Shown here: in pieces, positions 25,559 through 51,592 of the stretch
How positions within the stretch are numbered: the stretch's first letter is position 1
How the letters are laid out: every line of letters begins with the position of its first letter
Assembly: GCA_012514745.1 (NCBI GenBank)
Contig: JAAYZR010000002.1
Location: forward strand, 104,962 to 168,961
Direction of reading: 5' to 3'
Length of the DNA stretch: 64,000 bases
From: Candidatus Undivivens industriae
GTDB lineage: Bacteria > Omnitrophota > Gorgyraeia > Gygaellales > Profunditerraquicolaceae
Notes under the pieces: generated by a model
Seen by the model: only the letters and a program-made list of their open reading frames with translations
What the model was told of the DNA's origin: nothing
Database searches by the model: none
Translations under genes and position numbers: made by a program

Positions 25559-27240
25559 TTCCTTGTCCGTTCTTTTCCGCATTCTTTGAATATCGTTTCT
25601 ATCTGGTCGTAATCCAGCTCTTCTTTGGCGATCAGCTCCCCGGCGAAGCGGTCAAGCAGGGCGGACTCTTTCTTTAACAGATCCTCAACTTCCTGCAGGC
25701 ACTGGGAAAGTATGCTTTGCACGTCGTCGTCCAGCCTTTCCTTGGTCTTTTCCGAAATAAAACTCATCTGCGGCCACGCGGAAGAAGAGGAAAAGTTTTT
25801 GCTCAATTCCTTGAAATTGCCCTTCATTCCGGAAGAACCCATGCCCCAGCACCAGACCATATTATAGGCCCAGAAAGCCGCCTGAAGCATATCTTCTCCC
25901 ACCCCCGAAGTGGTCGTGCGGAATTTCAGCATCTCCGCGGCGTAAGAACCCAGCGCCACTTTTATATTGGCCAGGTAATATTCTTTGTTATGTATGTGCA
26001 TTTCCTCCTTCGAACGGTGATAGACGTAGCCGAGGAAGCCGACGGTGCGCGGTATGATGGTGGCCTTGAATACGTCGTCGGTGGGGTGGAGCAGGTATGC
26101 GGTAATGGCATGCCCGGCTTCATGATAGGCGACTTGTTCTTTCTCCGCCGGGCTGAGCTCCAGGGATTTTCTCAGGCCCATGTCTATTCTTTCCATGGCT
26201 TCGTTTATCTCAGCCATGCCTATGCTGTCCTTTTGTTTGCGGATGGCGATTATCCCGGCCTCCCGCACGATGTTGTTTATGTCGGCGGGGCTTTTGTAAA
26301 CCGCCTTGCGCGCCAGCTGTCCTATGCTTATGTCGCTTCCGCAGCGCACCTTTTTAAGATAGAATTCGAAAAGCTGTTCTCTGTCTTTGAGCCCGGGCAA
26401 TCCTATGTATATCTTTCTGTCGAAACGTCCGGCGCGCATCAGCGCCTGGTCGAGGTCTTTTTCATCCACATTGGTGGCCCCGATCACTACAAGGTTGTTT
26501 TCTTTCTTGCGCAGTCCGTCCAGTTCCGTGAGCAGTTGGTTGACCGCGGCGTTCGCGCTCATCTGTCCGCCGAAGCCGGCATCGTCTCTCCTGGGCCTGG
26601 CTACCGAATCTATTTCGTCGATAAATATTATGCATCCGCCGTGCAATTCTGCCAGGGCGCGGGCCTCTTTGAACAGCGAACGGATTTTTGCCGCCCCCAG
26701 GCCGACGATGATGCCTTCCAGCTCGCTGCCTACCACGGAAAGGAACGGCATCTGCACTTCCGTGGCTATTGCCTTGGCCAGATAGGTTTTTCCGCATCCC
26801 GGCGCCCCGGAAAGCAGTATCCCCTTCACGATCTGTCCTCCCACGCGCTGCAGTTTAGTGCGGTCTTTCAATAACTGCACCACTTCCCAGGCTTCCCGTT
26901 TTACTTCGTCCATGCCGATGACTTCGTCCCATTTCACGTTCACTTCCACGCTTTTTATCTTTTTCTGCCCGAGTTTCGTCATCCCTCCGGCAAAAAAGAA
27001 CCAGTAGTGAAATACCGTATAGATCGAGGCGAAGACGAAAGCGGTGACGACGGCTATGAATATCTGCAGCGGGATCATGGAAAGCTGCATTTGTTTATAG
27101 AACGATTCCAGCCCTGCCATCGCTTTCATTCCGACTATCAAGGCGAACACGGTCAGGGTGAGCACAGTTACTGCCAGCAGGACCAGCAGCAGCTTTATCC
27201 AGTTTAGCTTCACATAAACGGAGACTTTTTTCAGGTTCAT
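25555..27240 (-). CDS. divergent FtsH-like AAA+ zinc metalloprotease (no periplasmic domain)
   Basis: Walker A GAPGCGKT, Walker B IIFIDEID, M41 zinc site HEAGHA. The two N-terminal TM helices are separated by only about 17 residues. Confidence 0.75.
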   Translation of the reverse strand: MNLKKVSVYVKLNWIKLLLVLLAVTVLTLTVFALIVGMKAMAGLESFYKQMQLSMIPLQIFIAVVTAFVFASIYTVFHYWFFFAGGMTKLGQKKIKSVEVNVKWDEVIGMDEVKREAWEVVQLLKDRTKLQRVGGQIVKGILLSGAPGCGKTYLAKAIATEVQMPFLSVVGSELEGIIVGLGAAKIRSLFKEARALAELHGGCIIFIDEIDSVARPRRDDAGFGGQMSANAAVNQLLTELDGLRKKENNLVVIGATNVDEKDLDQALMRAGRFDRKIYIGLPGLKDREQLFEFYLKKVRCGSDISIGQLARKAVYKSPADINNIVREAGIIAIRKQKDSIGMAEINEAMERIDMGLRKSLELSPAEKEQVAYHEAGHAITAYLLHPTDDVFKATIIPRTVGFLGYVYHRSKEEMHIHNKEYYLANIKVALGSYAAEMLKFRTTTSGVGEDMLQAAFWAYNMVWCWGMGSSGMKGNFKELSKNFSSSSAWPQMSFISEKTKERLDDDVQSILSQCLQEVEDLLKKESALLDRFAGELIAKEELDYDQIETIFKECGKERTRK

Positions 27241-27928: not shown

Positions 27929-27958
27929 TTGACAGTTCCAGTCCCGGTAAGCTATAAT
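27929..27958 (+). promoter_or_regulatory. consensus sigma70 promoter TTGACA-18-TATAAT upstream of PilZ gene 2
   Basis: TTGACA at 27929-27934, TATAAT at 27953-27958. Confidence 0.55.
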
Positions 27959-28089: not shown

Positions 28090-28434
28090 ATGGAATATAT
28101 AGAACAGCCAGACGGGAGCCCGGAAGACCAGAGATTGTTCGAGCGTATTCAGGGTCAATTCCCCGTAAAGTACACCGACCTGTATTCGCATATCTCTGGA
28201 GAAGCGGTTTCAAGCGACATCAGCGCTTACGGCCTCGGCATGATCTCCGGAACTGAACTGCAGTCTTCGGCGGATCTCGAGATATGGGTGAACGTTCCCG
28301 ACCAGGGCCAGCCGCTTTACGCCAGGGGCAGGGTAGTTTGGTGCAGGCCGGAAGGCGTGAAGAGCTATCGCATGGGTATCCGTCTGGAGAATGCCGAACT
28401 AATGAGGTTTTCCAGGGTTATGCGGCTGCATTGA
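28090..28434 (+). CDS. single-domain PilZ protein
   Basis: RxxxR (RLFERIQ) and DISAYGLG motifs. Confidence 0.65.
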   Translation: MEYIEQPDGSPEDQRLFERIQGQFPVKYTDLYSHISGEAVSSDISAYGLGMISGTELQSSADLEIWVNVPDQGQPLYARGRVVWCRPEGVKSYRMGIRLENAELMRFSRVMRLH

Positions 28435-28591
28435 TATACCCGGCGGCGTACGCGGTCCCGTCCCGATATAAAAATCTTGACCATATAATAAACATGTGTT
28501 AGAGTTAAACACATCTTATTTTATCCGCACTACAACCAACTGTCGGTAAATCCAGTTACAGCACAAGATTTCCGGCTCGAGAGGAGGCTCA

Positions 28592-29911
28592 ATGGCGGTA
28601 AAATTCTCCGGCTGTCTGAGAGGGGTATCGGCCTTTTCAATTCTAAGTCTGCTTTGCCTGTGCGGGTGCTCGCCTACGCCTGCGGAGAATAAGAATTCCG
28701 TGGTCATCTGGCACTGGATGACCGACCGTCAGCCCGCGTTCGAGGAATTGAGCCGCCGGTATGAAGAATTGACCGGCGTGAAAGTTACCTTCGAACTCTA
28801 CGCTCCTTCCGACGCCTATTCCCAGAAGATCAGGGCCGCCGCGCAGAGCGTGAGTCTGCCCGATATATTCGGCATACTGGGAGAAAAACGCGATTTCTCC
28901 TCTTTCGTCAAGGCGGGCCATATACTTGATATAACTCCTTATATGTCGTCGGACAACGGTAAATGGAAGAACGTGTTCTTTTCCAAAGCCCTGGCCGTCA
29001 ACGAGTTTTCTTCCGATAATACCTATGGGGTCACCCCGGGCATATACGGGGTCCCTATCGACATAACAACCATCCAGATGGTCTATAATAAGAAGCTGCT
29101 GAAACAGATAGGCGGAAATCCTAATAGGCCTCCGGCCACTCTGGAGGAATTCCTCGCTTTAGGACCGAAGATCAAGGCTTCCGGTATCCAGGGTCTTGTT
29201 TCCGGGTGGGGAGAAGTGTGGATGGTCGATTGTATGGCAAATAATTACGCCTTCAACGTGATGGGGAAAGACAAGGTATTGGCTACAATAAGAGGCGACG
29301 TCCCTTATACAGATCCGGACTGGATCAAGGTTTTCGAGATATTCAATCAAATGCAGAACTCCGGGGTGCTGGCGAACGGACTTGTAACCATGGTCAACAA
29401 GAACGCCGAGCAGCTTTTTGCCAACGAAAAGGCCGTGTTCGCGTTCAACGGCTCCTGGTGCGTGAATGTTTACAAGGGTATGACTCCCGGCTTGGAGTTC
29501 GGCGCCATGCTGCCGCCGGCGGTGAGTTCCAGGTATCCTATGGTAATCTGGGGCGGGGCGGGATCTTCTTTTATGGTTAACGCCAGATCACCGAGGAAGG
29601 AAGAGGCGGTCAAGTTCTTGCGTTGGCTTACCGACCGTGAACAGCAGGTCTTTTTGGCGGAGATAACGCTTAACCTGCCGGCGAACAAAGACAGCCTGAA
29701 GAAAATATCCGACGTGCTGGCGCAATTCGCGGACGATATAGAGACTTCCACGCATCCCAACGTGTGGGGAGTTTCCGAATTCCCCACCGTGGTCGAAGCC
29801 CTTGACAAGGGGATTCAGTCCATAGTTATCGGGGAGAAAACCTCCGTGCAGGTGGCGGAAGAGGTGCAGAAGATAAAACAAAGGGAATTGTCGAAGAAAA
29901 ACAACAAGTAA
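28592..29911 (+). CDS. ABC transporter substrate-binding lipoprotein (family 1, carbohydrate)
   Basis: Lipoprotein signal LCLCGCS; MalE-like SBP length and composition. Confidence 0.8.
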   Translation: MAVKFSGCLRGVSAFSILSLLCLCGCSPTPAENKNSVVIWHWMTDRQPAFEELSRRYEELTGVKVTFELYAPSDAYSQKIRAAAQSVSLPDIFGILGEKRDFSSFVKAGHILDITPYMSSDNGKWKNVFFSKALAVNEFSSDNTYGVTPGIYGVPIDITTIQMVYNKKLLKQIGGNPNRPPATLEEFLALGPKIKASGIQGLVSGWGEVWMVDCMANNYAFNVMGKDKVLATIRGDVPYTDPDWIKVFEIFNQMQNSGVLANGLVTMVNKNAEQLFANEKAVFAFNGSWCVNVYKGMTPGLEFGAMLPPAVSSRYPMVIWGGAGSSFMVNARSPRKEEAVKFLRWLTDREQQVFLAEITLNLPANKDSLKKISDVLAQFADDIETSTHPNVWGVSEFPTVVEALDKGIQSIVIGEKTSVQVAEEVQKIKQRELSKKNNK

Positions 29912-29953
29912 CATCCGCCGCGCGGCCGGCGCCCGGGCGGTCAAACGTCTCAT

Positions 29954-30832
29954 ATGCGTATTAAATCGACACTGGAAAATTATCTTTTTGTTCTGCCCGC
30001 GGTCGCGATTTTCCTTATTTTCTATCTTATCCCGTTCATTTGGGTCTTCCAGCTCGGTATGTATGAATGGGACGGTATCCTTCCTACCAAGACTTTTGTC
30101 GGCCTGTCTAATTTCAAAGAAGTCCTTACTCAGGACAACATCTGGTGGCTTTCCATGCGGCAAGCCGGGTATATTACCCTGATCGCTATTATCTTTCAGA
30201 ACGCGATGGCTTTTATGCTGGCCATGGCCTGCGACAGGGAAATAAAGATGAAGAATTTCTTCCGGCTCGTCTTTTTTATCCCGCCGGTGCTTTCCGAGGT
30301 GGTAGTCGGCCTTGTATGGCAGTGGATACTCGACGGCAATTACGGTCTTCTTAATGCCTGGCTGCTCAAAATGGGGCTGCCTCATCTGGCCAAGAACTGG
30401 CTTTCGGATCCGCAGACCGCGCTTACTACCGTGGCCGTGGTGCACTGCTGGAAAGGCTTCGGCTGGGGCTTTCTGATTTTCCTGGCCGGACTACAGACGA
30501 TCCCGCGGGAGTTGTATGAAGCCGCGCGCGTGGACGGGGCCAACGCCTGGGCGAGTTTCAAGAACATAACCCTGCCGTTGATGATCCCGGTAGCCATACT
30601 GGTTGCTATCCTTACCGTCCTGGGCACCATGCAGGCGTTCGTTTTGATTATAGCCATGACCGGCGGCGGCCCGGCTTACCACACGCAGGTGCCGGTGCTG
30701 CGCATATTGGCTTCCATGCGCGGATCGTCGCGTTTCGGCTACGCCTGCGCACAGGGCATTGTTTTCGGGGTGGTGTTGATAATAATTTCGTTCGTGCAAT
30801 ACCGTTTTTCCAAGAGATCAAGGCAATATTAA
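29954..30832 (+). CDS. carbohydrate ABC transporter permease (MalF-like)
   Basis: 6 TM segments; EAA-like loop (ELYEAARVDGANAW). Confidence 0.8.
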   Translation: MRIKSTLENYLFVLPAVAIFLIFYLIPFIWVFQLGMYEWDGILPTKTFVGLSNFKEVLTQDNIWWLSMRQAGYITLIAIIFQNAMAFMLAMACDREIKMKNFFRLVFFIPPVLSEVVVGLVWQWILDGNYGLLNAWLLKMGLPHLAKNWLSDPQTALTTVAVVHCWKGFGWGFLIFLAGLQTIPRELYEAARVDGANAWASFKNITLPLMIPVAILVAILTVLGTMQAFVLIIAMTGGGPAYHTQVPVLRILASMRGSSRFGYACAQGIVFGVVLIIISFVQYRFSKRSRQY

Positions 30833-30856
30833 CGCGCCGAAGGAGCGTCGTCGTAT

Positions 30857-31705
30857 ATGAAAAGCGATAAATATTACCGCGGTAAGAAAGCAGCAGTGAA
30901 TGTGATAATCTACGCTTTTCTTATAGCGGTGGCGTTGACCTGTATTTTCCCGCTGCTCTGGATGTTCTCTTCCAGCCTGAAGACGCAGGAAACCATTTTC
31001 CGGGACATGTCGCTTATTCCCAGGGAGTTTCATTTTGAGAATTACGTCCTGGCCTGGAAGCAGGGCGGGTTCGGGCGGAACTTTTTCAACAGCATCGTTT
31101 ATACCTCGATCGTCGTGCTCGGCATAGTGGTGGTTTCCTCCCTGGCCGCTTACGCCTTTTCCAGGTTCACCTTCCCGGGCAGGAACCTTATTTTCTATAT
31201 GTTCATGGCGGCGATGATGATCCCTATCCCCGGCAGCTTCGTCCCGCTTTATGTTCTGTTGAACAAGTTGCACCTGCGCAACACCGCCATAGGCTATATA
31301 CTTTGCATGATCAACGTTGGATTGTCGACCAGCATCTTTCTTCTGAAGACTTTTTTCGACAAGATGCCTAAGGAACTCGAAGACGCGGCGAGGATAGACG
31401 GCTGCTCTAAACTCGGCATCTGGCGTCACGTCGCCCTGCCATTGGCGAAGCCCGTTCTGGCTGTCGTGGTAGTTTTGAACGCGCTTAATGTCTGGAACGA
31501 GTATGTGCTGGCGCTGATCATATTCGATTCCAAACCTTTGATGCCGCTGCAGGTGGCGTTGATGACGTTCCAGGGGGAATTCATTACGCGTTATCCGCTG
31601 CTCATGGCCGGGTTGACCATCACCGCCCTGCCTATAATACTAGTTTATATTCTTATGCAAAAATACATAGTCAAAGGCGTAACTCAAGGAGCATTAGTGG
31701 GGTAA
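30857..31705 (+). CDS. carbohydrate ABC transporter permease (MalG-like)
   Basis: EAA loop EDAARIDGCSKLGIW. Confidence 0.8.
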   Translation: MKSDKYYRGKKAAVNVIIYAFLIAVALTCIFPLLWMFSSSLKTQETIFRDMSLIPREFHFENYVLAWKQGGFGRNFFNSIVYTSIVVLGIVVVSSLAAYAFSRFTFPGRNLIFYMFMAAMMIPIPGSFVPLYVLLNKLHLRNTAIGYILCMINVGLSTSIFLLKTFFDKMPKELEDAARIDGCSKLGIWRHVALPLAKPVLAVVVVLNALNVWNEYVLALIIFDSKPLMPLQVALMTFQGEFITRYPLLMAGLTITALPIILVYILMQKYIVKGVTQGALVG

Positions 31706-31707
31706 AT

Positions 31708-34014
31708 ATGAAGATACCTGTTATTTCCTTATGTTTGGCGTTTTTGTTGCTTTCCGGCGGCTCTGCCCGGGCCGGGGACGGCACTCCGGCCGCGAAGGAT
31801 CCGGCCGAATCCTCCTCGACGTTAATCACCAAGTCCTGGCAGGCGCACGGCAGCGGAGACGTGGAAGCCACGTTTAAATACACCGGCAGGTGCATCGAAT
31901 TGTATTCTGCCGAGGCGTTGAAGCAGCAGGGATCGCTGAAGGGGATGCCCTCCAATAAGGACGAAATACAAGCGGTCGCCGTCTTGAACGACGTCGCCAC
32001 CGCTTATTTCATCCAGGCCGAGAGTTATATGAGGCAGGGCAAGAACGACGAGGCTAAAAAGCTGTTCAAGACCATCATAGAGAAATATCCTTTTGCCCAG
32101 GCCTGGGACCAGCGCGGGTGGTATTGGAAGATAGCTCAGGCCTCCGAGCAGAGCGTCAAAAAGATAGAGACCGGTTCTATAGAGATAGAAGAAAAAAAGA
32201 AGGTCAGCCAGCTGCCGACGGTAATAGAACTGTATGATCCGGGGAAAGAGGATGTGGTTGATTATGAAAAATACGGCGAATTCACCAAGACCGGCACCGC
32301 CGAGTATAAATACATCGTCAAGGACCAGGAAGGCTTGAGCGCGGCGGTGGGCGAGGGAATCTACCCCAATACCACTTCCATCCGCTGGGACCCTGCCTAC
32401 AAAAAAGCGCAGAAGGAAAAAAGGCTGGAGGGATCGCATTGGGATTACGTGCATTCCCCGGATCTGGAAGCGGCTTTTCTAAAATGGGCCACGGCTCCGG
32501 AACCGCAGGGCGTCAAACTTTTCTATCTCGGATTGATACTGGAAAAATCCGGACTTTATAAGCACGCGCTGAAGTGTTATTACGCGATAGTCGTGCATTT
32601 CCCGGGGACTTACGGCTGGACTTATTGGCACACACCCTGGTATGTGGGGCAGGCCGCCATCGCCAAGATAAAACACATATTGCGCAACAACCCCTCGCTC
32701 GGATATAAACTGGCCGGGGCGGACATAAAGATATTGAACGGTTTCGACAACGACGTATCCAACGATATGGCGGTGACGACACCGGGAAAATTCGTGAAAA
32801 CATCTTCTCTGGACAAGATGAAGGGACGTCTGTCCGACGGACGGGTTCCTGCGGTGAAAAAGCGGCTGGGATGCGGGAAGGTGCATCTTGTCCAATACGA
32901 AGACGACGGCTGGCAGTTGATCGTCGAAGGCAAACCGTACGTGATCAGGGCCGTTACTTACGCCCCCACCAAGATCGGACAGTCCCCCGATGAGGGGACT
33001 CTCGGGAACTGGATGGAGGAAGATTTCAATGCCAACGGCAAGATAGACGGCCCTTACGATGCTTTCGTGGACAAGAACAGGAACAACATCCGGGACGCCA
33101 ATGAGCCGGCGGTAGGTGATTTCAAGCTGATGAAGGATATGGGCATAAACACGATCAGACTTTATCATCATCCCAAGACAATCAACAAGGAACTGATGCG
33201 CGCGATGTACAAGGATTACGGCATCAGGGTGATAGTGGGGGATTTCCTCGGCAAATACGCCATAGGTTCCGGCGCGTCTTGGTATCCGGGAACGGATTAT
33301 AACGACGAAGATCACAAGAAGAAAATGATGGAAACCGTGCTCGGCATGGTTAAGGAATTCAAGGACGAGCCTTATGTCCTGTTCTGGCTGCTGGGCAACG
33401 AGAATGTTTACGGATTCGCCTGCAATGCCGACAAGGAGCCGGAGGCTTTCTTTAAGTTCGCCAACGAAGTGGCCGGAAGGATCAAAGAGATCGATCCGGA
33501 ACATCCGGTGGCGATATGCAGCGGAGACGTTCTCTTCCTGGATAAGTACGGTAAGAACGCTCCCGACGTGGATATTTTCGGCACCAACGCCTACCGCGGA
33601 GACTATGGTTTCGGGTTCCTCTGGCGCCAGGTCAAGGAAGAAACGGGCAAACCGGCGTTCATCACGGAATACGGATGTCCGGCTTTTTCCCTGGGCTTTA
33701 GCGTGGAGGAAGCGGAAAAGGCGCAGGCCGAATACCATCGCGGGACCTGGGAGGACATAGAGGAGAATATGGCTTTTCATGAGGGAGAGGGCAACGCAAT
33801 CGGAGGGGTGATCTTCGAATGGCTGGACGAATGGTGGAAGGCCTATGAACCTTCCATGCACGATACCAAAGGTTTGTTTACGGGGCCTTTCCCGGACGGA
33901 TTCATGCACGAAGAGTGGCTGGGTATCTGCGGGCAGGGCGACGGCAAGAACAGCCCGTTCCTGCGGGAATTAAGGCCGGCGTATTTCATGTATAAAAAGA
34001 AATGGAACAGGTGA
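31708..34014 (+). CDS. secreted glycoside hydrolase, clan GH-A-like TIM barrel, with a roughly 380-aa N-terminal TPR-like extension
   Basis: Signal peptide. The catalytic-type motifs LGNENVY (acid/base) and ITEYGCP (nucleophile) are present. It is a paralog of the 35355-36755 gene. Confidence 0.6.
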   Translation: MKIPVISLCLAFLLLSGGSARAGDGTPAAKDPAESSSTLITKSWQAHGSGDVEATFKYTGRCIELYSAEALKQQGSLKGMPSNKDEIQAVAVLNDVATAYFIQAESYMRQGKNDEAKKLFKTIIEKYPFAQAWDQRGWYWKIAQASEQSVKKIETGSIEIEEKKKVSQLPTVIELYDPGKEDVVDYEKYGEFTKTGTAEYKYIVKDQEGLSAAVGEGIYPNTTSIRWDPAYKKAQKEKRLEGSHWDYVHSPDLEAAFLKWATAPEPQGVKLFYLGLILEKSGLYKHALKCYYAIVVHFPGTYGWTYWHTPWYVGQAAIAKIKHILRNNPSLGYKLAGADIKILNGFDNDVSNDMAVTTPGKFVKTSSLDKMKGRLSDGRVPAVKKRLGCGKVHLVQYEDDGWQLIVEGKPYVIRAVTYAPTKIGQSPDEGTLGNWMEEDFNANGKIDGPYDAFVDKNRNNIRDANEPAVGDFKLMKDMGINTIRLYHHPKTINKELMRAMYKDYGIRVIVGDFLGKYAIGSGASWYPGTDYNDEDHKKKMMETVLGMVKEFKDEPYVLFWLLGNENVYGFACNADKEPEAFFKFANEVAGRIKEIDPEHPVAICSGDVLFLDKYGKNAPDVDIFGTNAYRGDYGFGFLWRQVKEETGKPAFITEYGCPAFSLGFSVEEAEKAQAEYHRGTWEDIEENMAFHEGEGNAIGGVIFEWLDEWWKAYEPSMHDTKGLFTGPFPDGFMHEEWLGICGQGDGKNSPFLRELRPAYFMYKKKWNR

Positions 34015-34222
34015 ACGGTTCGCACGTTCGCTATTTCATATTACTGGGAGGTAGAAAGGAGGAGCACAGGCAACAAGCGCAGTTGAATCGAATCAGGTAA
34101 AGATATGTTTTTAAGGAAACGTTCACTTTCACGCTGGCGTCCGGTCTTGATGTGTGCGGCAGCGGAAAGGGAAGGAACGCGGCACAATAACCGGCCGCGC
34201 TCCATCATGGAGGGGTTTTCAG

Positions 34223-35374
34223 ATGAGAAAATTATTAATGGTTACTTTAATTGCCGTATTCGCTTCGGCATTCACGACTACTCTTGAACGCGCGCAGGCG
34301 GATAACCTGAAGTCGTTCAGCGTTTACACCGACAGTAAATCTCCCGACAACCATTACGCGGCTTCCGGCTGGATGGGGGATTTCGGCGATATCAAGATGA
34401 ACGATCAGGCTTTGGAGAATCCTCATTCAGGGTCCACCAGCATAGAGTTCTCTTATTCCGCCAAGAAATCGCAGGGCCAGGGATGGGCCGGCGTTTATTG
34501 GCAGAATCCCGCCAATAACTGGGGAAGCAAAAAGGGAGGATTCGATCTTACCGGCATGACCAAGCTGACTTTTTGGGCGCGCGGCGCCAAAGGCGGCGAG
34601 ATCATCCAGAAGTTCGTAGTGGGAGGGATAAAAGGCGATTATTCCGATTCCGCGGCGGCCGAGTTCGGGCCTGTGGAATTGACCGATACCTGGAAGGAAT
34701 ACACGATCAATCTCGCCGGCCGCGATCTGTCCTATATAAGCGGCGGATTCGGCTGGGTGGCGACAGCCGACCTGAATCCCGACGGATGCGTTTTCTATAT
34801 CGACGATATAAAGTTCTCCGTCGATCAGGAGATGAAACCGGAGGGAAAGAAGCAGCAGGATATGCCTTTTTATGTCTACTCCGACAAAAGCTCGGTAAGC
34901 AACCATTTCGTGGCTTCCGGCTGGATGGGGGACTACGGCGACATAAAATATGAGGGTTCTTCCACCGAGGATCCCTATCTCGGCGATACCTGTATCAAGG
35001 TGGTCTATACCGCCAAAGGCGCGCAGGGCGCGCGCTGGGGAGGCATATACTGGCAGAATCCGGCCAACAACTGGGGCAGCATAGACGCCGGGTTTGACCT
35101 TTCCAAGGCGACCAAGGTTACCTTCTGGGCGCGCGGCGCAAAAGGCGGCGAGCGCATAGAGGAGTTCAAGATCGGCGGTATAATGGGAGAGTTTTCCGAC
35201 TCGGACACCGCAGGTATAGGCCCTGTCGTTCTTACCAAGGACTGGCAGCAGTATTCGATCGACCTGAAAGGCAAAGACCTTTCTTTCATCATAGGAGGTT
35301 TTTGCTGGGCGACCAACGCCGACGTTAATCCGGACGGCGTAATCTTCTACCTGGATGAAATCAAATACGAATAA
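34223..35374 (+). CDS. secreted protein made of two tandem duplicated ~190-aa beta-sandwich-like modules (putative carbohydrate-binding)
   Basis: Internal repeat: SGWMGDFGDIK...YWQNPANNWGS...TFWARGAKGGE...PDGCVFYIDDIKF recurs as SGWMGDYGDIKY...YWQNPANNWGS...TFWARGAKGGE...PDGVIFYLDEIKYE. Signal peptide present; GGAGG RBS. Confidence 0.55.
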   Translation: MRKLLMVTLIAVFASAFTTTLERAQADNLKSFSVYTDSKSPDNHYAASGWMGDFGDIKMNDQALENPHSGSTSIEFSYSAKKSQGQGWAGVYWQNPANNWGSKKGGFDLTGMTKLTFWARGAKGGEIIQKFVVGGIKGDYSDSAAAEFGPVELTDTWKEYTINLAGRDLSYISGGFGWVATADLNPDGCVFYIDDIKFSVDQEMKPEGKKQQDMPFYVYSDKSSVSNHFVASGWMGDYGDIKYEGSSTEDPYLGDTCIKVVYTAKGAQGARWGGIYWQNPANNWGSIDAGFDLSKATKVTFWARGAKGGERIEEFKIGGIMGEFSDSDTAGIGPVVLTKDWQQYSIDLKGKDLSFIIGGFCWATNADVNPDGVIFYLDEIKYE

Positions 35375-36755
35375 CACCGCCGCCGGCAGCGCCGACGGCA
35401 ACAAAACCGGTATCGCGGGCCGCGGGGCGTCGTTCCCCGCGGCTTGCGGTATTCTTCTGGCATGTCTTTTTCTGCTTTGCGGTATGTCCGCCAAGCCGCC
35501 CGCCAAAGTAGCCATACGCACTCTCAAGAACGGCGATTACCAGCTATTGGTCTGCGGAAGGCCTTACGTGGTGAAAGGAGTCTGTTACAACCCGGTTCCC
35601 ATCGGGCAGGGATCGGATTACGCATGGTGGCAGGATACACATAAACCCTGGCTTACAGACGGCAGGATGATGAAAGCGATGGGAGTGAATACCATCCGTT
35701 TATACGAGCCGGCAGACGACGCCGCCGAGGTGAAGGCGGTCTTGAACGATCTTTACAAGTTTTACAATATACGGGTGATCATGGGCAACTGGCTCGGGTT
35801 CTGGGAGTACCCGGGTCCTTTCTACGGAGACCGGGATTTTCGCGACAAGGTCAAAGAGAAAGTGCTCGAGATGGTGCGCACGTATAAAGACGAACCGGGC
35901 ATACTTTTCTGGCTGCTGGGCAACGAGAATAATTATTCTTTCTCCGGGCAGATAAATCCCTGGAGCACCGACGAGATAGATAAAGAGCCGGACCCGATAA
36001 AACAAAGGGCCATGCGCGCCAGGATATATTACACATTCGTTAACGAACTGGCGCAGGAGATACACAAGATAGATCCGTACCACCCGGTGGCGCTCGGCAA
36101 CGGCGAACTTGTCGGGCTGGAGTGCGCGGCTAATTATTGTCCCGACGTCGATCTGCTGGGGTGCATAATCTACAGAGGAAAGACTTTCGGGAACCTGTTT
36201 AATTCTCTTAAGGCGACTTTCGATAAACCGGTGGTGTTGACCGAATTCGGCGCCGATAGCTACGATTCCTACCGCAACAGGGAAGATCAGGATATGCAGG
36301 CGTTTTTCCTTGAATCACAGTGGAGACAGATATACCAGAATCTTGCCGGCAGCCGCGAGGGCACGGGCAACTGCCTCGGCGGGGTAATGTTCGAGTGGAC
36401 AGACGAGTGGTGGAAGAATAACCCGAATTCCCCGGCCACCTGGACGGTGCAAGACACTCAGCCGCGCTGGTCGAATGGGAGTTATTATTTCGACATAAAG
36501 GCCAAAGACAGCCTGAACATGAACGAGGAATGGTTCGGGATCGTGGCGCTTTCTCCGAACGATAAAGGATCGGGATTGGACTTGCGCATCCCGCGTAAGG
36601 CTTATTATGTGGTGAGGGAATTCTGGAAAAGGCCGCGGAACAACAGGGAGATACAAAAAGAACCGTTGGAAAAGAATACCGCGGGAAGCGGCCTCAAAGG
36701 ACTGCCGATCAAGGATCTGATCAAACAATGTCCGTTGGAGGACGGGAAGAAATAA
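35355..36755 (+). CDS. glycoside hydrolase, clan GH-A-like TIM barrel (paralog of the 31708-34014 C-terminal domain)
   Basis: LGNENNYSF and VLTEFGADSY motifs; collinear with the catalytic domain of the upstream GH gene. Confidence 0.6.
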   Translation: MKSNTNNTAAGSADGNKTGIAGRGASFPAACGILLACLFLLCGMSAKPPAKVAIRTLKNGDYQLLVCGRPYVVKGVCYNPVPIGQGSDYAWWQDTHKPWLTDGRMMKAMGVNTIRLYEPADDAAEVKAVLNDLYKFYNIRVIMGNWLGFWEYPGPFYGDRDFRDKVKEKVLEMVRTYKDEPGILFWLLGNENNYSFSGQINPWSTDEIDKEPDPIKQRAMRARIYYTFVNELAQEIHKIDPYHPVALGNGELVGLECAANYCPDVDLLGCIIYRGKTFGNLFNSLKATFDKPVVLTEFGADSYDSYRNREDQDMQAFFLESQWRQIYQNLAGSREGTGNCLGGVMFEWTDEWWKNNPNSPATWTVQDTQPRWSNGSYYFDIKAKDSLNMNEEWFGIVALSPNDKGSGLDLRIPRKAYYVVREFWKRPRNNREIQKEPLEKNTAGSGLKGLPIKDLIKQCPLEDGKK

Positions 36756-38401
36756 TGGGGAAAACACTAATATATAATACGATTTTTCCGGTAATACTCC
36801 TGCTCGCCGCGTTTGTTCCTTTCAGGCAGGCTTGCCCGGCGGAGCCGGATATCTGCGCAGCGTGCCTTAGGGACGCCCTTTCCTCCGGCAAGAACGATGA
36901 CACATCCTCCTCGGACGCTTTACCGGCAACTCTGCAGAAATTGCGGGAATGTTATTATTCCTCCGGCAGATACGGCGAGTTCGTTTCCGCCCTTAAGACA
37001 ATCGCGGCGAAGAAAAAAGAGCTGGCCGGATGGGCTTATTATTATGCCGGAGCTGCCAGATACGACCAGCTGGCAGCTCTCCAGGCGGATAAGAAATGGG
37101 ATGAATATTTCTCCAGCGGAGATACTTACCGGCGTGAGGCCGTGGAATACGCACAAAAGGCGGTGAAATCGGCTGTCGGGAGAGGGGCCCTGCCGGTATA
37201 TTCGAGACTTTTATTATGGCAGACCCTGCGCGAGAACCAGGATGAGGCGGCCGCAGCGGCGCTTCAGGAACTATTGTCTGCCGTACGTGAATACGCTTCG
37301 TCGGAAGGCGCCGACCCCGGGGCGGTGAAGGACGCGGCGGACGGGTTGGCAGCCGCCGGAGAAAAGATGAAGGCCGGGGGGCTCTACAAGCTTTACATCG
37401 AAAGAAAGGCTTCCGATGGGGCCGGGCTGGAAGAGATCCGCGCTCTCGCCGAGCAATTCATGGAAGAGGGGAATTCACTGTCTTCGGAACCGGCTTATGA
37501 CGCTTACTTGGAAGGACTACTGCGAAGCCCCGCGTATTCCAAAGAAGAGAAGATAGCCGCGCTCCTCGACATCGCCGGAAAGTTCGTCTACAAAGACAGC
37601 GGCTTCTGCGACCCGGAATATGCCGAGAAGCTCTTTGCCATGGCCGAATCACTTGCCGGCAAGGACGGCTTCGCGGAAGACCAACTTTATACCAGGGCGT
37701 GGAATCTTGAGAAGAGCCGTTCGTTCGAAGCGGCCGCGGAACGTTACGCCGGGCTGGCCGAGAAGTTTCCCGCGGGCAAGTACGCCGATGAGGCGGTGTT
37801 CAAAGCAGGCGCTATAAGAATATACGCTCTTAGAGATACCGAGGGCGGGAAGCGGTATCTGCAGAAGCTCGCGGATTCCGGCAGACAAAACCCTTACGTT
37901 GTGTCCTCCATTTACCACTTAGCATTGTTGCTGCAGTGGGAAGGCGATTCGTCGCGCGCCGCCGAATATTATAACACGCTGATCGGGCTTGCCGGTAAAC
38001 ATTACGAGGAAGAGGTCGATCTCTCCAGGGTCAGAATGGCGGAACTGGCCGGCAATAAACCGATAGAATACAATCTGAGGACTTTTCTTGAGCTTTCCTT
38101 CCGTCAGGAGAATGCCGTGTATAATATGTCTAGGCTGGAATTGAAGGCTTCTCCCGTCCGTCCGGCTCCCGGAGAAAGTATTTCCGTCGCGGCATCGACG
38201 CATACCGCCGAAAGCGGCTGCATGCCGGTAAAACTTTCTTTTCTCTGGTCCGGGCAGACCGGTAAAGACTCCAAGTTGTCCGCCGATAATGCCGGTTTCT
38301 CCGCCGTTTACCGGGAACCGGGCAGCCGCGTCGTCGGCTCCGTGGCGCTGCATCCTTCCGGGACCATAGACCGTTCTTTCGTGATCATTGACGTGCGTTA
38401 A
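36755..38401 (+). CDS. hypothetical secreted protein (helical repeat region plus C-terminal Ig-like domain)
   Basis: Signal peptide MGKTLIYNTIFPVILLLAAF. ATG overlaps the upstream stop codon. No catalytic motif recognised. Confidence 0.45.
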   Translation: MGKTLIYNTIFPVILLLAAFVPFRQACPAEPDICAACLRDALSSGKNDDTSSSDALPATLQKLRECYYSSGRYGEFVSALKTIAAKKKELAGWAYYYAGAARYDQLAALQADKKWDEYFSSGDTYRREAVEYAQKAVKSAVGRGALPVYSRLLLWQTLRENQDEAAAAALQELLSAVREYASSEGADPGAVKDAADGLAAAGEKMKAGGLYKLYIERKASDGAGLEEIRALAEQFMEEGNSLSSEPAYDAYLEGLLRSPAYSKEEKIAALLDIAGKFVYKDSGFCDPEYAEKLFAMAESLAGKDGFAEDQLYTRAWNLEKSRSFEAAAERYAGLAEKFPAGKYADEAVFKAGAIRIYALRDTEGGKRYLQKLADSGRQNPYVVSSIYHLALLLQWEGDSSRAAEYYNTLIGLAGKHYEEEVDLSRVRMAELAGNKPIEYNLRTFLELSFRQENAVYNMSRLELKASPVRPAPGESISVAASTHTAESGCMPVKLSFLWSGQTGKDSKLSADNAGFSAVYREPGSRVVGSVALHPSGTIDRSFVIIDVR

Positions 38402-38488
38402 GCGCACCCCTCCGGCGCATCTTGCGCGTAACCGGTGTCAACGCAAAGAGATGTATTCCGGCCATCGCGACAATAAACTTTTTTTAAC

Positions 38489-38517
38489 TTGACTTGAAGG
38501 GTATTTGGTAGTATAAA
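38489..38517 (+). promoter_or_regulatory. sigma70-type promoter TTGACT-17-TATAAA upstream of the ROK regulator gene
   Basis: TTGACT at 38489-38494, TATAAA at 38512-38517. Confidence 0.5.
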
Positions 38518-38573
38518 ATTAAATAAAAATACCTTTCGGAAAGGGTTCTGACAACCTGGAAAGGCTGCCTGCA

Positions 38574-39809
38574 ATGCTTTCTGTAGACTTACACAGGGAA
38601 GATTACTCTGAAAAGGAAAAGCGCAATATTGAGATCCTCGAGATCTTGAGAAGGCGCGGCCCCATCAGTCGTCCGGACATCTCCAAAGAGATGGGGATCA
38701 ACGTCGTTACGATTTCCAATTACATAGACGATTATATAAAACGCGGCCTGGTTTACGAGAAAGAGCTTGATATCTCTGAAGGCGGCCGCAGGCCGGCTTT
38801 GCTGGAGCTTAATTCTCAATCCGGGTATATCATCGGCGTCGGGCTCAACTTGTTGAACATGGTCGGGCTGTTGGTGGATATGAAGGGCAACATCGTTACC
38901 AAGACGCAGATAGCCAGCCCGCGCTCGTCGGTGAAAGATGTTACCGAGGCGGTGCTGGAGATAATCCGCGAGATATTGAGACGTTCCAAGTCGTATGTCC
39001 CGGCAATCAAGGGGATAGGCGTCGGCATCGCGGGGCTGGTGAACAAGAAAGACGGCAGCATACACTGGCCGCAGAGGGTGGATCATTCCTACGCCTACGT
39101 TTCCGTGGACCTGCCGCTGCGGGAAATAATCGAGAAGGAATTCGACCTGCCGGTGTTGATAGAGAACGACGCCACCGCCGCCTGTTTCGGTGAGAATTGG
39201 CTTAACCTCGGGCGCGGTTACAGAAACATCATCTATATGTTCTCCGGCGTCGGATGCGGAATCGTCATAAACGGCGAGATCTATACCGGTTCCAACGGAT
39301 ACGCCGGAGAAGTCTCCATATATAATTATTCCAAGGATTCCGTTTTTAATTGTGAAGCAGGAGATCCGTGTTTTCTCAAACGCTGGGAAATGGATCTGGG
39401 TATTACGGCTGAACTAAATAAACTGCTTAAGGCCGACAAGAAGGCGGAGACGGAGTTTTTGAAAACCGCCGGCTGCGGGCTTGAAGACGCCGGCCTGAAG
39501 AACATTTTTGCCGCCGCGAAAGCCGGCGATAAATCTGCGCGCAAAGCGCTGGACGCCGCCGCGGTCAAACTCGGCATAAAGATCGCATCTCTGGTCAATC
39601 TGCTGAACCCCCAGGTGGTCATCATAGGCGGCGGCATGGAAGAAGCCGGGGAGGACTTTTTGAATGAGGTAACCCAGACGGTGAAACAATGGGCGTTCCG
39701 GCAGGTGAGCGATAACCTGAAGATCGTTTATTCTCAACTGCGGGAGAACTCCGTGGCCTCCGGCGCGGCGAGTCTCGTAATGCAGAAAGTATTCGCGAGA
39801 ATACTATAG
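38574..39809 (+). CDS. ROK-family transcriptional regulator / sugar kinase (NagC/Mlc-like)
   Basis: N-terminal HTH plus ROK sugar-kinase fold (GVGLN...GIGVGIAGLV). Confidence 0.8.
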   Translation: MLSVDLHREDYSEKEKRNIEILEILRRRGPISRPDISKEMGINVVTISNYIDDYIKRGLVYEKELDISEGGRRPALLELNSQSGYIIGVGLNLLNMVGLLVDMKGNIVTKTQIASPRSSVKDVTEAVLEIIREILRRSKSYVPAIKGIGVGIAGLVNKKDGSIHWPQRVDHSYAYVSVDLPLREIIEKEFDLPVLIENDATAACFGENWLNLGRGYRNIIYMFSGVGCGIVINGEIYTGSNGYAGEVSIYNYSKDSVFNCEAGDPCFLKRWEMDLGITAELNKLLKADKKAETEFLKTAGCGLEDAGLKNIFAAAKAGDKSARKALDAAAVKLGIKIASLVNLLNPQVVIIGGGMEEAGEDFLNEVTQTVKQWAFRQVSDNLKIVYSQLRENSVASGAASLVMQKVFARIL

Positions 39810-39817
39810 GAGGCGGG

Positions 39818-40624
39818 TTGGAAGGTAAACTGAAGATAGTGTTGGTAGCGGTTACCGTAATCCTGGCGGCCAGTTTTTTCGTTAATCTCAGGCTTCTCGG
39901 TATAAAAAGGTCGCTTGAGATGGAACGGGATTCTCTCAAGCAGGAAATCGCCGCCTTGAATAAGAAAATAGAAGAGGGCATTGCCGAGAGGAAGAAGCTG
40001 CAGGATCGCGTCCAGGAGCTCGGCGCCGCCAACGATCAGCTTACCCGCGAAAAAGACGAGTTGAGCCAGCAGTGCAATATGCTGATGGAGGCCAGGGACA
40101 GTCTCACCCAGCAGCTTCAGCAGGCTAACGAGAACCTGGAGCGGGAAGTAAAGATGCGCGCTTATTTCGAGGGGCGGCTCGGCGAGTCGCAGAATGAAAA
40201 CGGACGCTTGAAGAATAAGAATTCAGAACTTGAGATAGTGCTTAAGGACAGCCTCGTCAAGATAGAAAAACTGAAAAAACAGCTGCATTTCGCCAGATTG
40301 AGCGCGACCGTTCCCCCGGCCCCTTCCACGGACGGGAATGCCGTGGAACTGCCTCCTATTTCCGTCTCTCCCCAATCGCAGAAGTATCTCGAGGAGACGT
40401 CTCCCCGCATCGGGAAAGTGGTGTCCGTCAATAAAGAGAACAATTTCGCGGTCATAAACCTCGGCGCCAATTCCGGGATAAGAGTCGGCGATTCCTTTTC
40501 CGTGCGCAGGGGGCGCAACAGCATCGCTACCCTTAAAGTCATACAGACCAGGAATTCTGTGGCTGCCTGCGATATCGTCAGTCAGGCCATCCCTCTGAAG
40601 ATCGGTGACCAGATAGCCCAATAA
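39818..40624 (+). CDS. membrane-anchored coiled-coil protein
   Basis: TTG start with TAGGAGG RBS. N-terminal TM helix, about 150 aa of heptad-rich sequence, and a C-terminal beta-rich domain. Confidence 0.45.
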   Translation: MEGKLKIVLVAVTVILAASFFVNLRLLGIKRSLEMERDSLKQEIAALNKKIEEGIAERKKLQDRVQELGAANDQLTREKDELSQQCNMLMEARDSLTQQLQQANENLEREVKMRAYFEGRLGESQNENGRLKNKNSELEIVLKDSLVKIEKLKKQLHFARLSATVPPAPSTDGNAVELPPISVSPQSQKYLEETSPRIGKVVSVNKENNFAVINLGANSGIRVGDSFSVRRGRNSIATLKVIQTRNSVAACDIVSQAIPLKIGDQIAQ

Positions 40625-40646
40625 GAAGCTTTATCCGTCTATTGTT

Positions 40647-41681
40647 ATGGTGAGGTCCAGCAATAAATCATCACAGACTATTTCCATCAAGGATGTCGCC
40701 AAACGGTGCGGAGTATCCATTACCACCGTCTCCCGCGTTATAAATAAGGTCCCCACCGTCAAAGACGAGAACCGCCGGAAAGTCCTCAAAGCCGTCAAGG
40801 AACTCGATTTTCACCCTTCCGTGTTGGCACAGCGTCTTGCGACCGGGCACAGCAATGTCGTCGCCCTGGTGATACCGCGATATGAAGGGATCTTTTACTC
40901 TTTCTACGCCTTGGAACTGATCCGCGGCATCGGGGCGTTGTGCGAGGCTTTCAAGCTCGACCTGCTGCTGCATTTGACGTCGGGAGGGACGCCCCTGAAT
41001 ATCAAGGGGGTCGGCGGATTTATCTTCGCTGATATCATCGGCAATCGCAGACAGCTTGAGGACGCGTTCAACAGTAAATTGCCGGTGGTGGTGATCAATA
41101 ATTATATAGACGATATGGACGTCAACTGTATTGCCGTGGACAACGAGGGAGGGGCGGAAAAAGCGGTGGATTACCTGATAAATCTGGGGCACCGCAAGAT
41201 CGCCCATATAACCGGAGACCTCGCAACCCAGGCCGCGTCGCTGCGTTATAACGGGTATAAAGACGCGCTGCGTAAGAATGGCCTGCCGCTGAACGAAGAA
41301 TATGTTTTTCAGACGGATTATTCCCGTGGCCGGGCGAGGGAAGCCGCGGAGAGGCTTATGGCGCTGGCAGAACCGGTGAGCGCGGTGTTCGTGGCCTCCG
41401 ATTCCATGGCGCTGGAAGTGATGGCCGTGGTAAGAGAAAGAGGCGGGAAGATACCCGACGATCTGTCTATCGTGGGATTCGACGATAACCCTTCGGGGCT
41501 CTACGGTCCGGTTGCCCTGACCACCATAAAGCAGCCATTGATACAAATGGCGCAGGAGAGCATTAAAGAACTGAACAGTCTTATGAGCAGCCGCGAGCCT
41601 ATGCCCGCCAAGAAGATATTCCTGCCGACGGAATTGATCATCAGAGAATCCTGCCGGCCTCTGTCCGTTCAGTTACAATAG
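40647..41681 (+). CDS. LacI-family transcriptional regulator
   Basis: HTH ISIKDVAKRCGVSITTVSRVIN plus periplasmic-binding-protein fold. Confidence 0.85.
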   Translation: MVRSSNKSSQTISIKDVAKRCGVSITTVSRVINKVPTVKDENRRKVLKAVKELDFHPSVLAQRLATGHSNVVALVIPRYEGIFYSFYALELIRGIGALCEAFKLDLLLHLTSGGTPLNIKGVGGFIFADIIGNRRQLEDAFNSKLPVVVINNYIDDMDVNCIAVDNEGGAEKAVDYLINLGHRKIAHITGDLATQAASLRYNGYKDALRKNGLPLNEEYVFQTDYSRGRAREAAERLMALAEPVSAVFVASDSMALEVMAVVRERGGKIPDDLSIVGFDDNPSGLYGPVALTTIKQPLIQMAQESIKELNSLMSSREPMPAKKIFLPTELIIRESCRPLSVQLQ

Positions 41682-47680: not shown

Positions 47681-47738
47681 AGGTATAAGCCGGGGCAGAT
47701 TGCTGCCGGCGGACAACCATTACAAAGAAGAGGTGCGC

Positions 47739-48224: not shown

Positions 48225-48251
48225 GCGTATCGTAACTGTAAAGGAGCGGCG

Positions 48252-49430: not shown

Positions 49431-49452
49431 AGCGGACGGGTGGAGCGCGGTT

Positions 49453-50784: not shown

Positions 50785-50835
50785 CCGGCGCGGCCCGCCT
50801 ATCTCGTCCGCTACAACCAGACAACAGAAAACGAA

Positions 50836-51576: not shown

Positions 51577-51592
51577 AGAGGCGTAATTTCCC

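Follow-up and report, generated by a model that had tools for sequence, protein, structure and literature searches.

A phylum-wide Omnitrophota operon with an unclassified clan GH-A glycosidase family points to beta-glucan capture and import

Introduction

What do bacteria of the phylum Omnitrophota feed on, and can a single conserved gene cluster tell? Omnitrophota are widespread, uncultured and ultra-small, and both their diet and their dependence on hosts are debated. We analyzed a 64-kb stretch of a Candidatus Undivivens industriae contig (JAAYZR010000002.1; hereinafter designated the window, within which all gene coordinates are given) that carries ten plus-strand genes at positions 28592-41681. 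A first-pass annotation, made from the letters of the window, had described them as a glycan-utilisation locus with an ATP-binding cassette (ABC) importer devoid of its ATPase, two paralogous glycosidases of clan GH-A (GH, glycoside hydrolase) and two regulators, and had called the substrate unknown. All ten genes, their order and their domain content were verified, and the reading as a glycan-utilisation locus is supported; the caution about the substrate was justified as well, except that the choice can now be narrowed to beta-glucan. On balance, we read the locus as an Omnitrophota operon for the capture and import of beta-glucan, probably beta-1,3-linked, with enzymes of an unclassified GH-A family and a new protein resembling carbohydrate-binding modules (CBMs).

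The existence and conservation of this cluster have already been noted in outline. West-Roberts et al. 2023 (bioRxiv 10.1101/2023.11.21.568195, Fig. 7C) reported a conserved Omnitrophota cluster of pilZ, a carbohydrate transporter dependent on a solute-binding protein (SBP) and glycosyl hydrolases, located downstream of giant genes, and a 2026 preprint (10.64898/2026.06.07.730766) calls the enzymes flanking giant genes GH2. By synteny the reported cluster is the locus analyzed here: it comprises PilZ, SBP, two permeases and two 'GH2'-annotated enzymes and occurs phylum-wide, including in Candidatus Velamenicoccus archaeovorus. Both preprints describe it at the Pfam level and read it as an apparatus for prey cell-wall degradation; the enzyme family and its link with laminarin polysaccharide utilization loci (PULs) are reported in neither, nor are the CBM-like protein and the variants with GH94, GH116 and major facilitator superfamily (MFS) genes.

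Results

The two glycosidases belong to an uncharacterized clan GH-A family

Glycosidase 1 (31708..34014, 768 aa) consists of an N-terminal part with a signal peptide and a TPR-containing region of about 380 aa (31708..32859), the extension that the first-pass annotation had described as TPR-like and that matches TPR_6/TPR_2 at aa 97-133, followed by a catalytic domain (32860..34014) with a weak GH2-type TIM-barrel match at aa 469-668. In glycosidase 2 (35355..36755, 466 aa), a hydrophobic signal or anchor segment precedes a (beta/alpha)8 barrel. The two catalytic domains are indeed paralogous (34% identity over ~415 aa, E 3e-64). Both carry the motif LGNEN (aa 562-566 in enzyme 1, aa 188-192 in enzyme 2) and its partner TE(Y/F)G (TEYG at aa 653-656 and TEFG at aa 296-299, respectively), which place the predicted acid/base at E565 and E191 and the predicted nucleophile at E654 and E297.

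The AlphaFold2 model of enzyme 2 (predicted local distance difference test, pLDDT, 80; predicted template modelling score, pTM, 0.79) is a (beta/alpha)8 barrel of eight strand-helix units, wherein E191 lies just after strand 4 (residues 183-188) and E297 within strand 7 (residues 293-298). This arrangement bears out the assignment to clan GH-A made from the motifs. Both glutamates are invariant in 22 sequences from three clades. The barrel carries large extra insertions, for instance at aa 194-240, and is followed only by a beta-hairpin and a helix. With the modelled barrel and both glutamates in place, the enzymes are predicted to be clan GH-A retaining glycosidases.

Assignment to a family proved as elusive as the first-pass annotation had found it. 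The Pfam family Glyco_hydro_2_C matches enzyme 1 at E 2.6e-10 and enzyme 2 only below the cut-off (E 0.006); matches to the N-terminal sugar-binding or Ig-like domains of GH2 are absent in Pfam, and all NCBIfam scores against GH2 equivalogs fall far under their cut-offs. GH72 (PF03198) does not match enzyme 2 and, at 21.8 bits, stays short of its cut-off of 25.9 bits with enzyme 1, and faint matches to PF26410 (GH5_mannosidase) are on record. The public names of these proteins, namely beta-glucuronidase, beta-galactosidase and endo-mannosidase, are automatic transfers from a weak TIM-barrel match. The glycosidase 2 orthologue of V. archaeovorus (QAT16272.1, L031:10013-11359) bears the GenBank and UniRef name 'methylenetetrahydrofolate dehydrogenase', an evident misannotation, and is a GH2 TIM-barrel protein in RefSeq.

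The best sequence matches in the PDB are the GH158 endo-beta-1,3-glucanases 9oro and 6pal (phmmer E 1e-10 to 1e-6), confined to the region from strand 4 to strand 7. A profile of 50 sequences brings no gain (GH158 at E 3.6e-11, with 80-200 residues aligned), and the family member of Polaribacter has no GH158 match at E<1e-3. Foldseek returns 408 PDB matches to the enzyme 2 model at E<=1e-3, led by GH158, GH157, GH2, GH5 and GH1 barrels. The top matches are all endo-beta-1,3-glucanases (GH158 9p26, E 4e-16; LaGH157 with laminaribiose, 3e-15; BuGH158, 2.5e-14), and GH2 and GH5 rank after them. GH158 (BuGH158 6pal; 9oro, 9p26) and GH157 (LaGH157 9g5g) share with the enzymes of the window a GH-A barrel, an xGNE acid/base motif and a TE[FW]G nucleophile motif. 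By contrast, sequence similarity to them stays at E ~1e-10 over 80-200 residues, structural alignments reach 18-21% identity at a template modelling (TM) score of ~0.5, and enzyme 2 has its large insertions. Family-level similarity to GH158 across the catalytic domain is thus lacking (E 1e-10 to 4e-11; 18-21% identity in structural alignment). From the Pfam, NCBIfam, PDB sequence and Foldseek comparisons together, we conclude that the enzymes form a distinct, uncharacterized clan GH-A family that is nearest to, and not demonstrably within, GH158.

The family is large, with 613 clusters (50% identity) at E<=1e-30 and 1797 at E<=1e-10. It falls into three roughly equidistant clades at 33-36% identity, two of them the Omnitrophota paralogues and the third the members outside the phylum. 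The three clades have 33 invariant residues in common, including both predicted catalytic glutamates and the motifs GNE[NS], [TSV]E[FYW]G, D[EG]WWK and EEW[FLW]G.

Homologues outside the phylum lie in laminarin loci

Polaribacter sp. Hel1_85, Flavobacterium chungnamense and other Bacteroidota have homologues with 34-38% identity, as does a single metagenome-assembled genome (MAG) of Myxococcota. In all 12 informative loci outside Omnitrophota the gene lies with GH16, and most of these loci also hold GH149, GH17, GH30 or MFS_2. In Polaribacter it sits between GH16 and a gene for a 1152-aa protein that matches the GH149 beta-1,3-oligosaccharide phosphorylase 6hq6 (E=0); the same PUL further holds a hybrid regulator, SusC, SusD, a PKD/CBM4_9 protein, GH3, GH17, GH30 and MFS_2. 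With this gene set it is the laminarin PUL described from marine Flavobacteriia as 'variant 1'. Sidhu et al. 2023 (PMC10108472) found the 'GH0' of variant-1 laminarin PULs to be highly expressed in abundant bacterioplankton of a North Sea bloom. Our family is very probably that 'GH0', because no other GH-like gene beside GH149 in the loci examined lacks an assignment; the identification is by position, not by a match of accessions. In a 2026 study of a Muricauda laminarin PUL (PMC13188888), the corresponding gene is called 'GH2'.

The flavobacterial 'GH0'/'GH2' proteins (Unfried 2018, PMC6246565; PMC10108472; PMC13188888) align with the enzymes of the window over the full catalytic domain at 34-38% identity and share both catalytic glutamates, D[EG]WWK and EEW[FLW]G; both groups are extracytoplasmic. 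The settings differ. The Bacteroidota genes are single copies in SusC/SusD PULs with GH16, GH17, GH30 and GH149, and often carry a C-terminal extension of ~650 aa, whereas the Omnitrophota locus has two paralogues, one of them fused to TPRs, and an ABC importer in place of SusC/SusD. In Pfam scans, TonB-dependent receptor and SusD domains were seen in the locus of the Bacteroidota homologue and are absent from the Omnitrophota locus. A literature search for biochemical characterisation of the 'GH0' enzyme found nothing, and the homologues go by 'GH0' or, loosely, 'GH2', so the locus does not reduce to a well-characterised family in a standard described PUL.

Freshwater and soil Bacteroidota, and also one Myxococcota MAG, have family members of ~1050 aa (L076, L078, L079, L081 and L083, at ~9850-13120). 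The ~650-aa C-terminal extension has no Pfam match in the two similar cluster representatives of ~1040-1070 aa that were scanned, and the domain partners of long family members (CBM4_9, dockerin and regulator-propeller only) offer no new clue to the substrate.

A cultured bacterium of the Planctomycetes-Verrucomicrobia-Chlamydiae (PVC) group, Lentisphaerota strain WC36 (CP085689), is reported to grow strictly on laminarin; it has no GH16, and its 'GH2' genes are upregulated (PMC13526803). These genes may belong to the present family or to GH158.

The locus is a syntenic core of Omnitrophota

We tabulated 70 orthologous loci of the Omnitrophota type, 66 from a scan of GTDB species representatives and four from look-ups of three homologues, a few of them duplicates; the set includes the complete genome of V. 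archaeovorus LiM (L031, NZ_CP019384). The order enzyme 1, tandem-module protein, enzyme 2 is kept in all 53 loci with enough flanking sequence. A sugar transporter lies upstream in 42 of 44 loci (ABC only, 34; ABC with MFS_2, 4; MFS_2 only, 4), and ROK and LacI regulators lie downstream in 29 of 47. Against the window proteins, SBP and permeases have median identities of 64-74%; the corresponding medians are 68% (catalytic domain of enzyme 1), 67% (tandem protein) and 59% (enzyme 2). Ribonucleotide reductase (RNR) and MnmG, encoded nearby, have medians of 73% and 60%, and the locus proteins just listed are thus conserved about as strongly as RNR. From these synteny and identity counts, the locus is a phylum-level core of Omnitrophota and not a strain-specific or accessory PUL.

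Other members of the locus evolve fast while staying in place, with median identities of 35% for the 557-aa TPR protein (21-39% among orthologues), 31% for the coiled-coil protein and 42% for PilZ. The coiled-coil gene always lies between the ROK and LacI genes (32 loci, 26-40% identity), and a PilZ gene precedes the SBP gene in 24 loci. The ten genes of the first-pass annotation therefore stand, with an eleventh, the PilZ gene at 28090..28434, also belonging with them; that annotation had not remarked on the phylum-wide synteny of this core and its linked PilZ gene. The TPR-containing N-terminal region of enzyme 1 is 45-72% identical in 55 orthologues (median 57%).

The closest locus, L005, from a GTDB Omnitrophota species representative, has 92-99% protein identity to the window. 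Public records for the exact window proteins (GX598 locus tags) are labelled 'Elusimicrobia bacterium', whereas all close relatives are Candidatus Omnitrophota, and the NCBI taxon label of the source MAG is probably wrong. A 10,990-bp contig binned as 'Methanosarcinales archaeon' (L054, JAIWAR010000050.1) holds the full Omnitrophota-type core of SBP, permease, enzyme 1, tandem protein and enzyme 2 at 46-58% identity; it is either binning contamination or an epibiont co-purified with its archaeal host.

A secreted CBM-like protein and an importer without its ATPase

The protein encoded between the two enzymes (34223..35374, 383 aa) is a secreted tandem-module protein, as the first-pass annotation described, with a signal peptide and two CBM-like beta-sandwich modules. 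Its start has to be moved: the open reading frame (ORF; 406 aa) reaches back to a GTG at 34154, but in public records the gene begins with the ATG at 34223. The two modules share 58% identity (E 3e-75) and are modelled by AlphaFold2 (pLDDT 78.5) as two beta-jelly-rolls. Foldseek best matches the model to tandem CBM22, BtSGBP-B from a beta(1,3)-glucan locus, CBM11, CBM8, CBM29 and CBM30; the CBM11 matches, which include complexes with a mixed-linkage tetrasaccharide, have TM scores normalized to the target of 0.65-0.69. At the sequence level the protein has no Pfam match even at E<=1 and no match in the PDB, which leaves it outside CBM11, CBM22 and CBM4_9. It shares with CBM11, tandem CBM22 and the Bacteroides SGBP-B proteins the beta-jelly-roll, the tandem layout, secretion and co-occurrence with enzymes; it differs in that the likeness is at the fold level only and in being free-standing rather than appended to an enzyme. 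The exception is a Planctomycetaceae MAG (L074), wherein the enzyme carries one module of this type (45% identity, E 2e-41) as a C-terminal fusion. This Rosetta-stone link supports a putative carbohydrate-binding role of the tandem protein.

Upstream of the enzymes lie genes for a CUT1-type oligosaccharide-binding lipoprotein (28592..29911, 439 aa; lipobox LCGC; SBP_bac_8/1, E 1e-33) and two BPD_transp_1 permeases, one UgpA/MalF-like (29954..30832, 292 aa) and one UgpE/MalG-like (30857..31705, 282 aa). A family-1 SBP with two such permeases makes a CUT1 importer, and the cognate nucleotide-binding subunit is missing, in line with the first-pass annotation: nowhere in the window is there an LSGGQ motif or a MalK-kind Walker A. 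ABC ATPase motifs occur in only one of the 70 orthologous loci (L049, two Opp-type motifs downstream), and absence of the ATPase is hence a constant feature of the locus. A shared ATPase of the MsmK/MalK type, encoded in trans, would presumably power the importer. The nearest solved relatives of the SBP bind chitin, xylo- or malto-oligosaccharides at E 2e-23 or weaker, and are uninformative as to specificity.

The gene after enzyme 2 (36728..38401) encodes a 557-aa protein with a hydrophobic N-terminus and weak matches to TPR, YbgF and YfiO only. The first-pass annotation had called it a secreted hypothetical; the protein is better described as TPR-rich. Homology between it and the TPR region of enzyme 1 was considered and rejected, as a comparison found no similarity. 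We propose that both serve as scaffolds or tethers.

Locus variants and protein expression in V. archaeovorus

In Velamenicoccus-type lineages, a GH94 phosphorylase gene lies directly upstream of the transporter (11 loci) and a GH116 beta-glucosidase gene between the TPR protein and ROK (8 loci); the latter matches the beta-glucosidase TxGH116 at E 7e-64. In some loci an MFS_2 transporter stands in for the ABC system or accompanies it; this transporter is 36-43% identical to the MFS of laminarin PULs. Taken together, the GH94, GH116 and MFS_2 variants mark a catabolic pathway by which beta-gluco-oligosaccharides are imported.

The proteins are made. We took expression values from re-analysed metaproteomes of a methanogenic limonene enrichment dominated by V. 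archaeovorus (PMC12583861, Table S1) and assigned the neighbours of QAT16272.1 by consecutive coding sequence (CDS) numbering, which fits the L031 gene map. Relative intensity-based absolute quantification (riBAQ) values in parts per million (ppm) are given in the order 10kS cells / 100S aggregates / 100S cells. The enzyme 2 orthologue QAT16272.1 stands at 25 / 81 / 52 ppm, enzyme 1 at 376 / 43 / 443, the tandem protein at 1106 / 1431 / 4045, SBP at 816 / 623 / 1337, GH94 at 274 / 75 / 372, GH116 at 77 / 21 / 101 and LacI at 343 / 132 / 473. The coiled-coil protein (L031 CDS _47), at 1590 / 648 / 1947 ppm, is among the more abundant locus proteins, which is unexpected for a regulatory accessory protein.

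These variants also bring up the nearest competitor to a beta-1,3-glucan, namely a different beta-glycan handled by the same type of locus: beta-1,4-glucan (as cellodextrins), mixed-linkage beta-1,3-1,4-glucan, or another GH-A substrate such as mannan or galactan. The GH94 of Velamenicoccus-type loci is cellobiose-phosphorylase-like, the tandem protein resembles CBM11 (solved with a beta-1,3-1,4 tetrasaccharide), CBM22 and CBM30, and the GH158 structure 9p2f was solved after a soak with the mixed-linkage oligosaccharide G4G3G; the public enzyme names and the faint PF26410 matches point the same way. Yet the dozen informative loci outside the phylum are without exception of the laminarin type (GH16 with GH149, GH17 and/or GH30), the top structural neighbours of the enzymes are beta-1,3-glucanases, GH2-type N-terminal domains are absent, and the names are automatic transfers. 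We therefore hold a substrate of this kind to be rather unlikely.

Giant genes and prey degradation

In 15 of 33 orthologous loci (L003, at 1-2664; L006, L008, L010, L011, L013, L015, L019-L022, L028, L036, L037 and L066), the PilZ gene is directly preceded by a large plus-strand ORF that is open at its 5' end. Such open-ended ORFs are consistent with the giant Omnitrophota genes reported upstream of the cluster. The window differs from the cluster of West-Roberts et al. in that no giant (Archaeovorin) gene adjoins the locus: its longest ORF spans 786 aa, and an FtsH-like gene (25555-27240, minus strand) followed by the PilZ gene lies upstream instead. L002, L005, L007 and L012 likewise have no adjacent giant gene and an FtsH-like gene nearby.

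Following West-Roberts et al. 2023, the enzymes and importer could work together with the giant 'Archaeovorin' proteins on the cell envelopes of bacterial or archaeal prey (peptidoglycan, pseudomurein, sheath or S-layer glycans), the products being imported. That preprint's report of conserved pilZ, SBP-dependent carbohydrate transporters and glycosyl hydrolases downstream of giant genes, and the open-ended ORFs above, speak for this proposal, as do the weak likeness of SBP and ROK to chitin/N-acetylglucosamine systems, the closeness of GH94 to chitobiose phosphorylase too, and expression of the locus in the predatory V. archaeovorus without added polysaccharide. On the other hand, scans with Pfam and NCBIfam show the locus to lack lysozyme, transglycosylase, amidase and peptidase domains, laminarin PULs are the sole informative context of the enzyme family outside the phylum, the nearest folds are beta-1,3-glucanases, and in the window and in L002, L005, L007 and L012 the giant gene is not adjacent. 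We consider envelope degradation unlikely; it is partly compatible with beta-glucan capture if the beta-glucan comes from prey or necromass.

Gene arrangement, regulators and neighbours

Short gaps or overlaps join consecutive genes (2 nt between permease 2 and enzyme 1, -20 nt between the tandem gene and enzyme 2, -28 nt between enzyme 2 and the TPR protein, 8 nt between ROK and the coiled-coil gene, 22 nt between the latter and LacI), which indicates an operon. The ROK protein (38574..39809; ROK, E 1.4e-43) has an N-terminal winged helix of the NagC/Mlc type (HTH_24 at aa 18-60, ROK at aa 97-404), and its scores against NagC/Mlc equivalogs are below cut-offs. Next come the coiled-coil protein with an N-terminal transmembrane helix (39818..40624; generic coiled-coil matches and a weak FlgT_C match) and a LacI-family repressor (40647..41681) with a LacI helix-turn-helix (PF00356, E 2e-17) and a sensor domain like periplasmic binding proteins (Peripla_BP_3, PF13377, E 3e-35). 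Pfam thus upholds the pair of regulators described at first pass. A defence-system role of the coiled-coil protein was rejected, as PADLOC gives generic coiled-coil matches only.

The PilZ-domain protein (28090..28434, 114 aa; Pfam PilZ, E 1.7e-9) is a putative receptor of cyclic di-GMP (c-di-GMP). In Candidatus Gygaella obscura, the ROK protein itself (L037:15564-16907) carries an N-terminal PilZ domain (PilZ at aa 2-104, winged helix-turn-helix at 131-179, C-terminal part of ROK at 347-440). This fusion suggests c-di-GMP control of ROK, and on account of it we tie the stand-alone PilZ gene to regulation of the locus.

Some 130 nt upstream of the PilZ start codon lies a sigma-70-like promoter, TTGACA-18-TATAAT (27929..27958, plus strand), a candidate by its 12/12 consensus match. 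A promoter-like site upstream of the SBP gene (28477..28513, plus strand) overlaps the palindrome TGTGTT-N7-AACACA, a weak candidate operator. A conserved operator was rejected, because this palindrome recurs in the near-identical L005 only, and so does an inverted repeat ahead of ROK. The sole RNA match in the locus, a glutamine riboswitch (RF01739) at 34118-34183 in the 208-nt gap between glycosidase 1 and the tandem gene, was also rejected (23.4 bits against a gathering threshold of 35, E 0.29); it is probably due to chance, since this gap varies from 22 to 270 nt among orthologues.

Downstream of the locus are the housekeeping genes for RNR, MnmG, NAD synthase and glutamine synthetase. The region 46901-61063 is a nitrogen-assimilation neighbourhood, with two NAD synthase genes (46901-47680, and 53955-55622 with a CN-hydrolase domain), glutamine synthetases of type I (49411-50784) and type III (58868-61063), a GAF-ANTAR regulator (50836-51576) and an ammonium transporter (56800-58041); enolase (51698-52963) lies among these genes.

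The PilZ link and the housekeeping-level conservation and synteny next to RNR and MnmG would also suit an endogenous role, in which the enzymes transglycosylate or trim beta-glucan that belongs to the cell itself, in its periplasm or at its surface (capsule, 'velamen' or extracellular polymeric substances), under c-di-GMP control and the importer recycles the fragments. The PilZ-ROK fusion in one lineage, weak similarity to GH72 glucanosyltransferases, a PMT-type glycosyltransferase gene after the cluster in L002 and L007 (same contig), and the abundance of tandem and coiled-coil proteins in a culture given no glycan add to this case. But the locus holds no glucan synthase or exporter, its hallmarks are catabolic (SBP importer or MFS_2 symporter, LacI and ROK repressors, cytoplasmic GH94 and GH116), and homologues elsewhere lie in nutrient PULs, all of which makes such remodelling very unlikely.

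Discussion

Taken as a beta-glucan capture-and-import operon, the locus would work as follows. Two Sec-exported, paralogous retaining glycosidases, probably endo-acting, would cut a beta-glucan outside the cytoplasm, most likely a beta-1,3-glucan of the laminarin or curdlan kind. The secreted tandem protein would bind the polymer, and the 557-aa TPR protein, like the TPR region of enzyme 1, would act as scaffold or tether. The lipoprotein SBP would pass oligosaccharides to the two-permease CUT1 importer, for which an MsmK/MalK-type ATPase encoded at another site would supply the energy. Once in the cytoplasm, they would be split by the GH94 and GH116 of the locus in Velamenicoccus-type lineages, and by enzymes encoded outside the window in the present lineage, with the products entering glycolysis. 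ROK (NagC/Mlc-type) and the LacI-type repressor would set expression, with c-di-GMP input through the adjacent PilZ.

Several observations weigh against this scheme. No enzyme of the family has been characterised, and the substrate is drawn from association at 33-38% identity and from a weak structural ranking. GH94 is much nearer to cellobiose (E 4e-151) and chitobiose (8e-132) phosphorylases than to laminaribiose phosphorylase (4e-43), and mainly for this reason the linkage is uncertain; CBM11, moreover, binds beta-1,4 and mixed-linkage glucans. The nearest solved relative of the SBP binds chitin oligosaccharides and ROK is NagC-like, both weakly. The window lacks not only the ATPase but also a cytoplasmic beta-glucosidase or phosphorylase. 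A nutrient PUL would not usually be conserved at housekeeping level or linked to PilZ. Expression of the locus was seen in a V. archaeovorus culture given no polysaccharide, so that any glycan substrate there would have to come from other members of the community. Finally, Omnitrophota are presumably diderm, and the polymer or the enzymes would have to cross the outer membrane.

A further parallel is offered by glycan loci of Firmicutes and Actinobacteria, wherein a shared MsmK/MsiK-type ATPase serves ABC importers. Like the present locus, they combine a CUT1 SBP and two permeases lacking an ATPase in cis with extracellular glycosidases and LacI. The Omnitrophota locus differs from them in its PVC-group phylum, its phylum-wide synteny, the ROK and LacI genes flanking a coiled-coil membrane protein, and the linked PilZ gene.

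Relative to earlier descriptions of the cluster, what appears to be new is the identity of the enzyme family and its connection with laminarin PULs, the likeness of the tandem protein to CBMs and its fusion with the enzyme, the locus variants with GH94, GH116 and MFS genes, and the PilZ-ROK fusion. A bolder proposal, which we offer tentatively and think doubtful as a whole, is that the enzymes and the Bacteroidota 'GH0' constitute a new CAZy GH family with beta-1,3-glucanase activity, that the tandem protein founds a new CBM family, and that the locus is the phylum's core feeding apparatus for beta-glucan from hosts, prey or necromass. In such a system, PilZ acting on ROK could form a c-di-GMP switch, the coiled-coil protein might sequester a regulator as PtsG does Mlc, and the whole might be coupled to the neighbouring giant proteins.

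One recent account (PMC13188888) describes laminarin as the most abundant marine energy source. Conserved like RNR, and with orthologues expressed as protein in the one enriched representative, the locus offers a direct handle on the diet of Omnitrophota and points to beta-glucan as a staple food of the phylum. Characterisation of one enzyme would annotate hundreds of protein clusters (the 613 noted above), would probably establish both a GH family and a CBM family as new, and would test the reading of the genes that flank giant Omnitrophota proteins as agents of prey cell-wall degradation.

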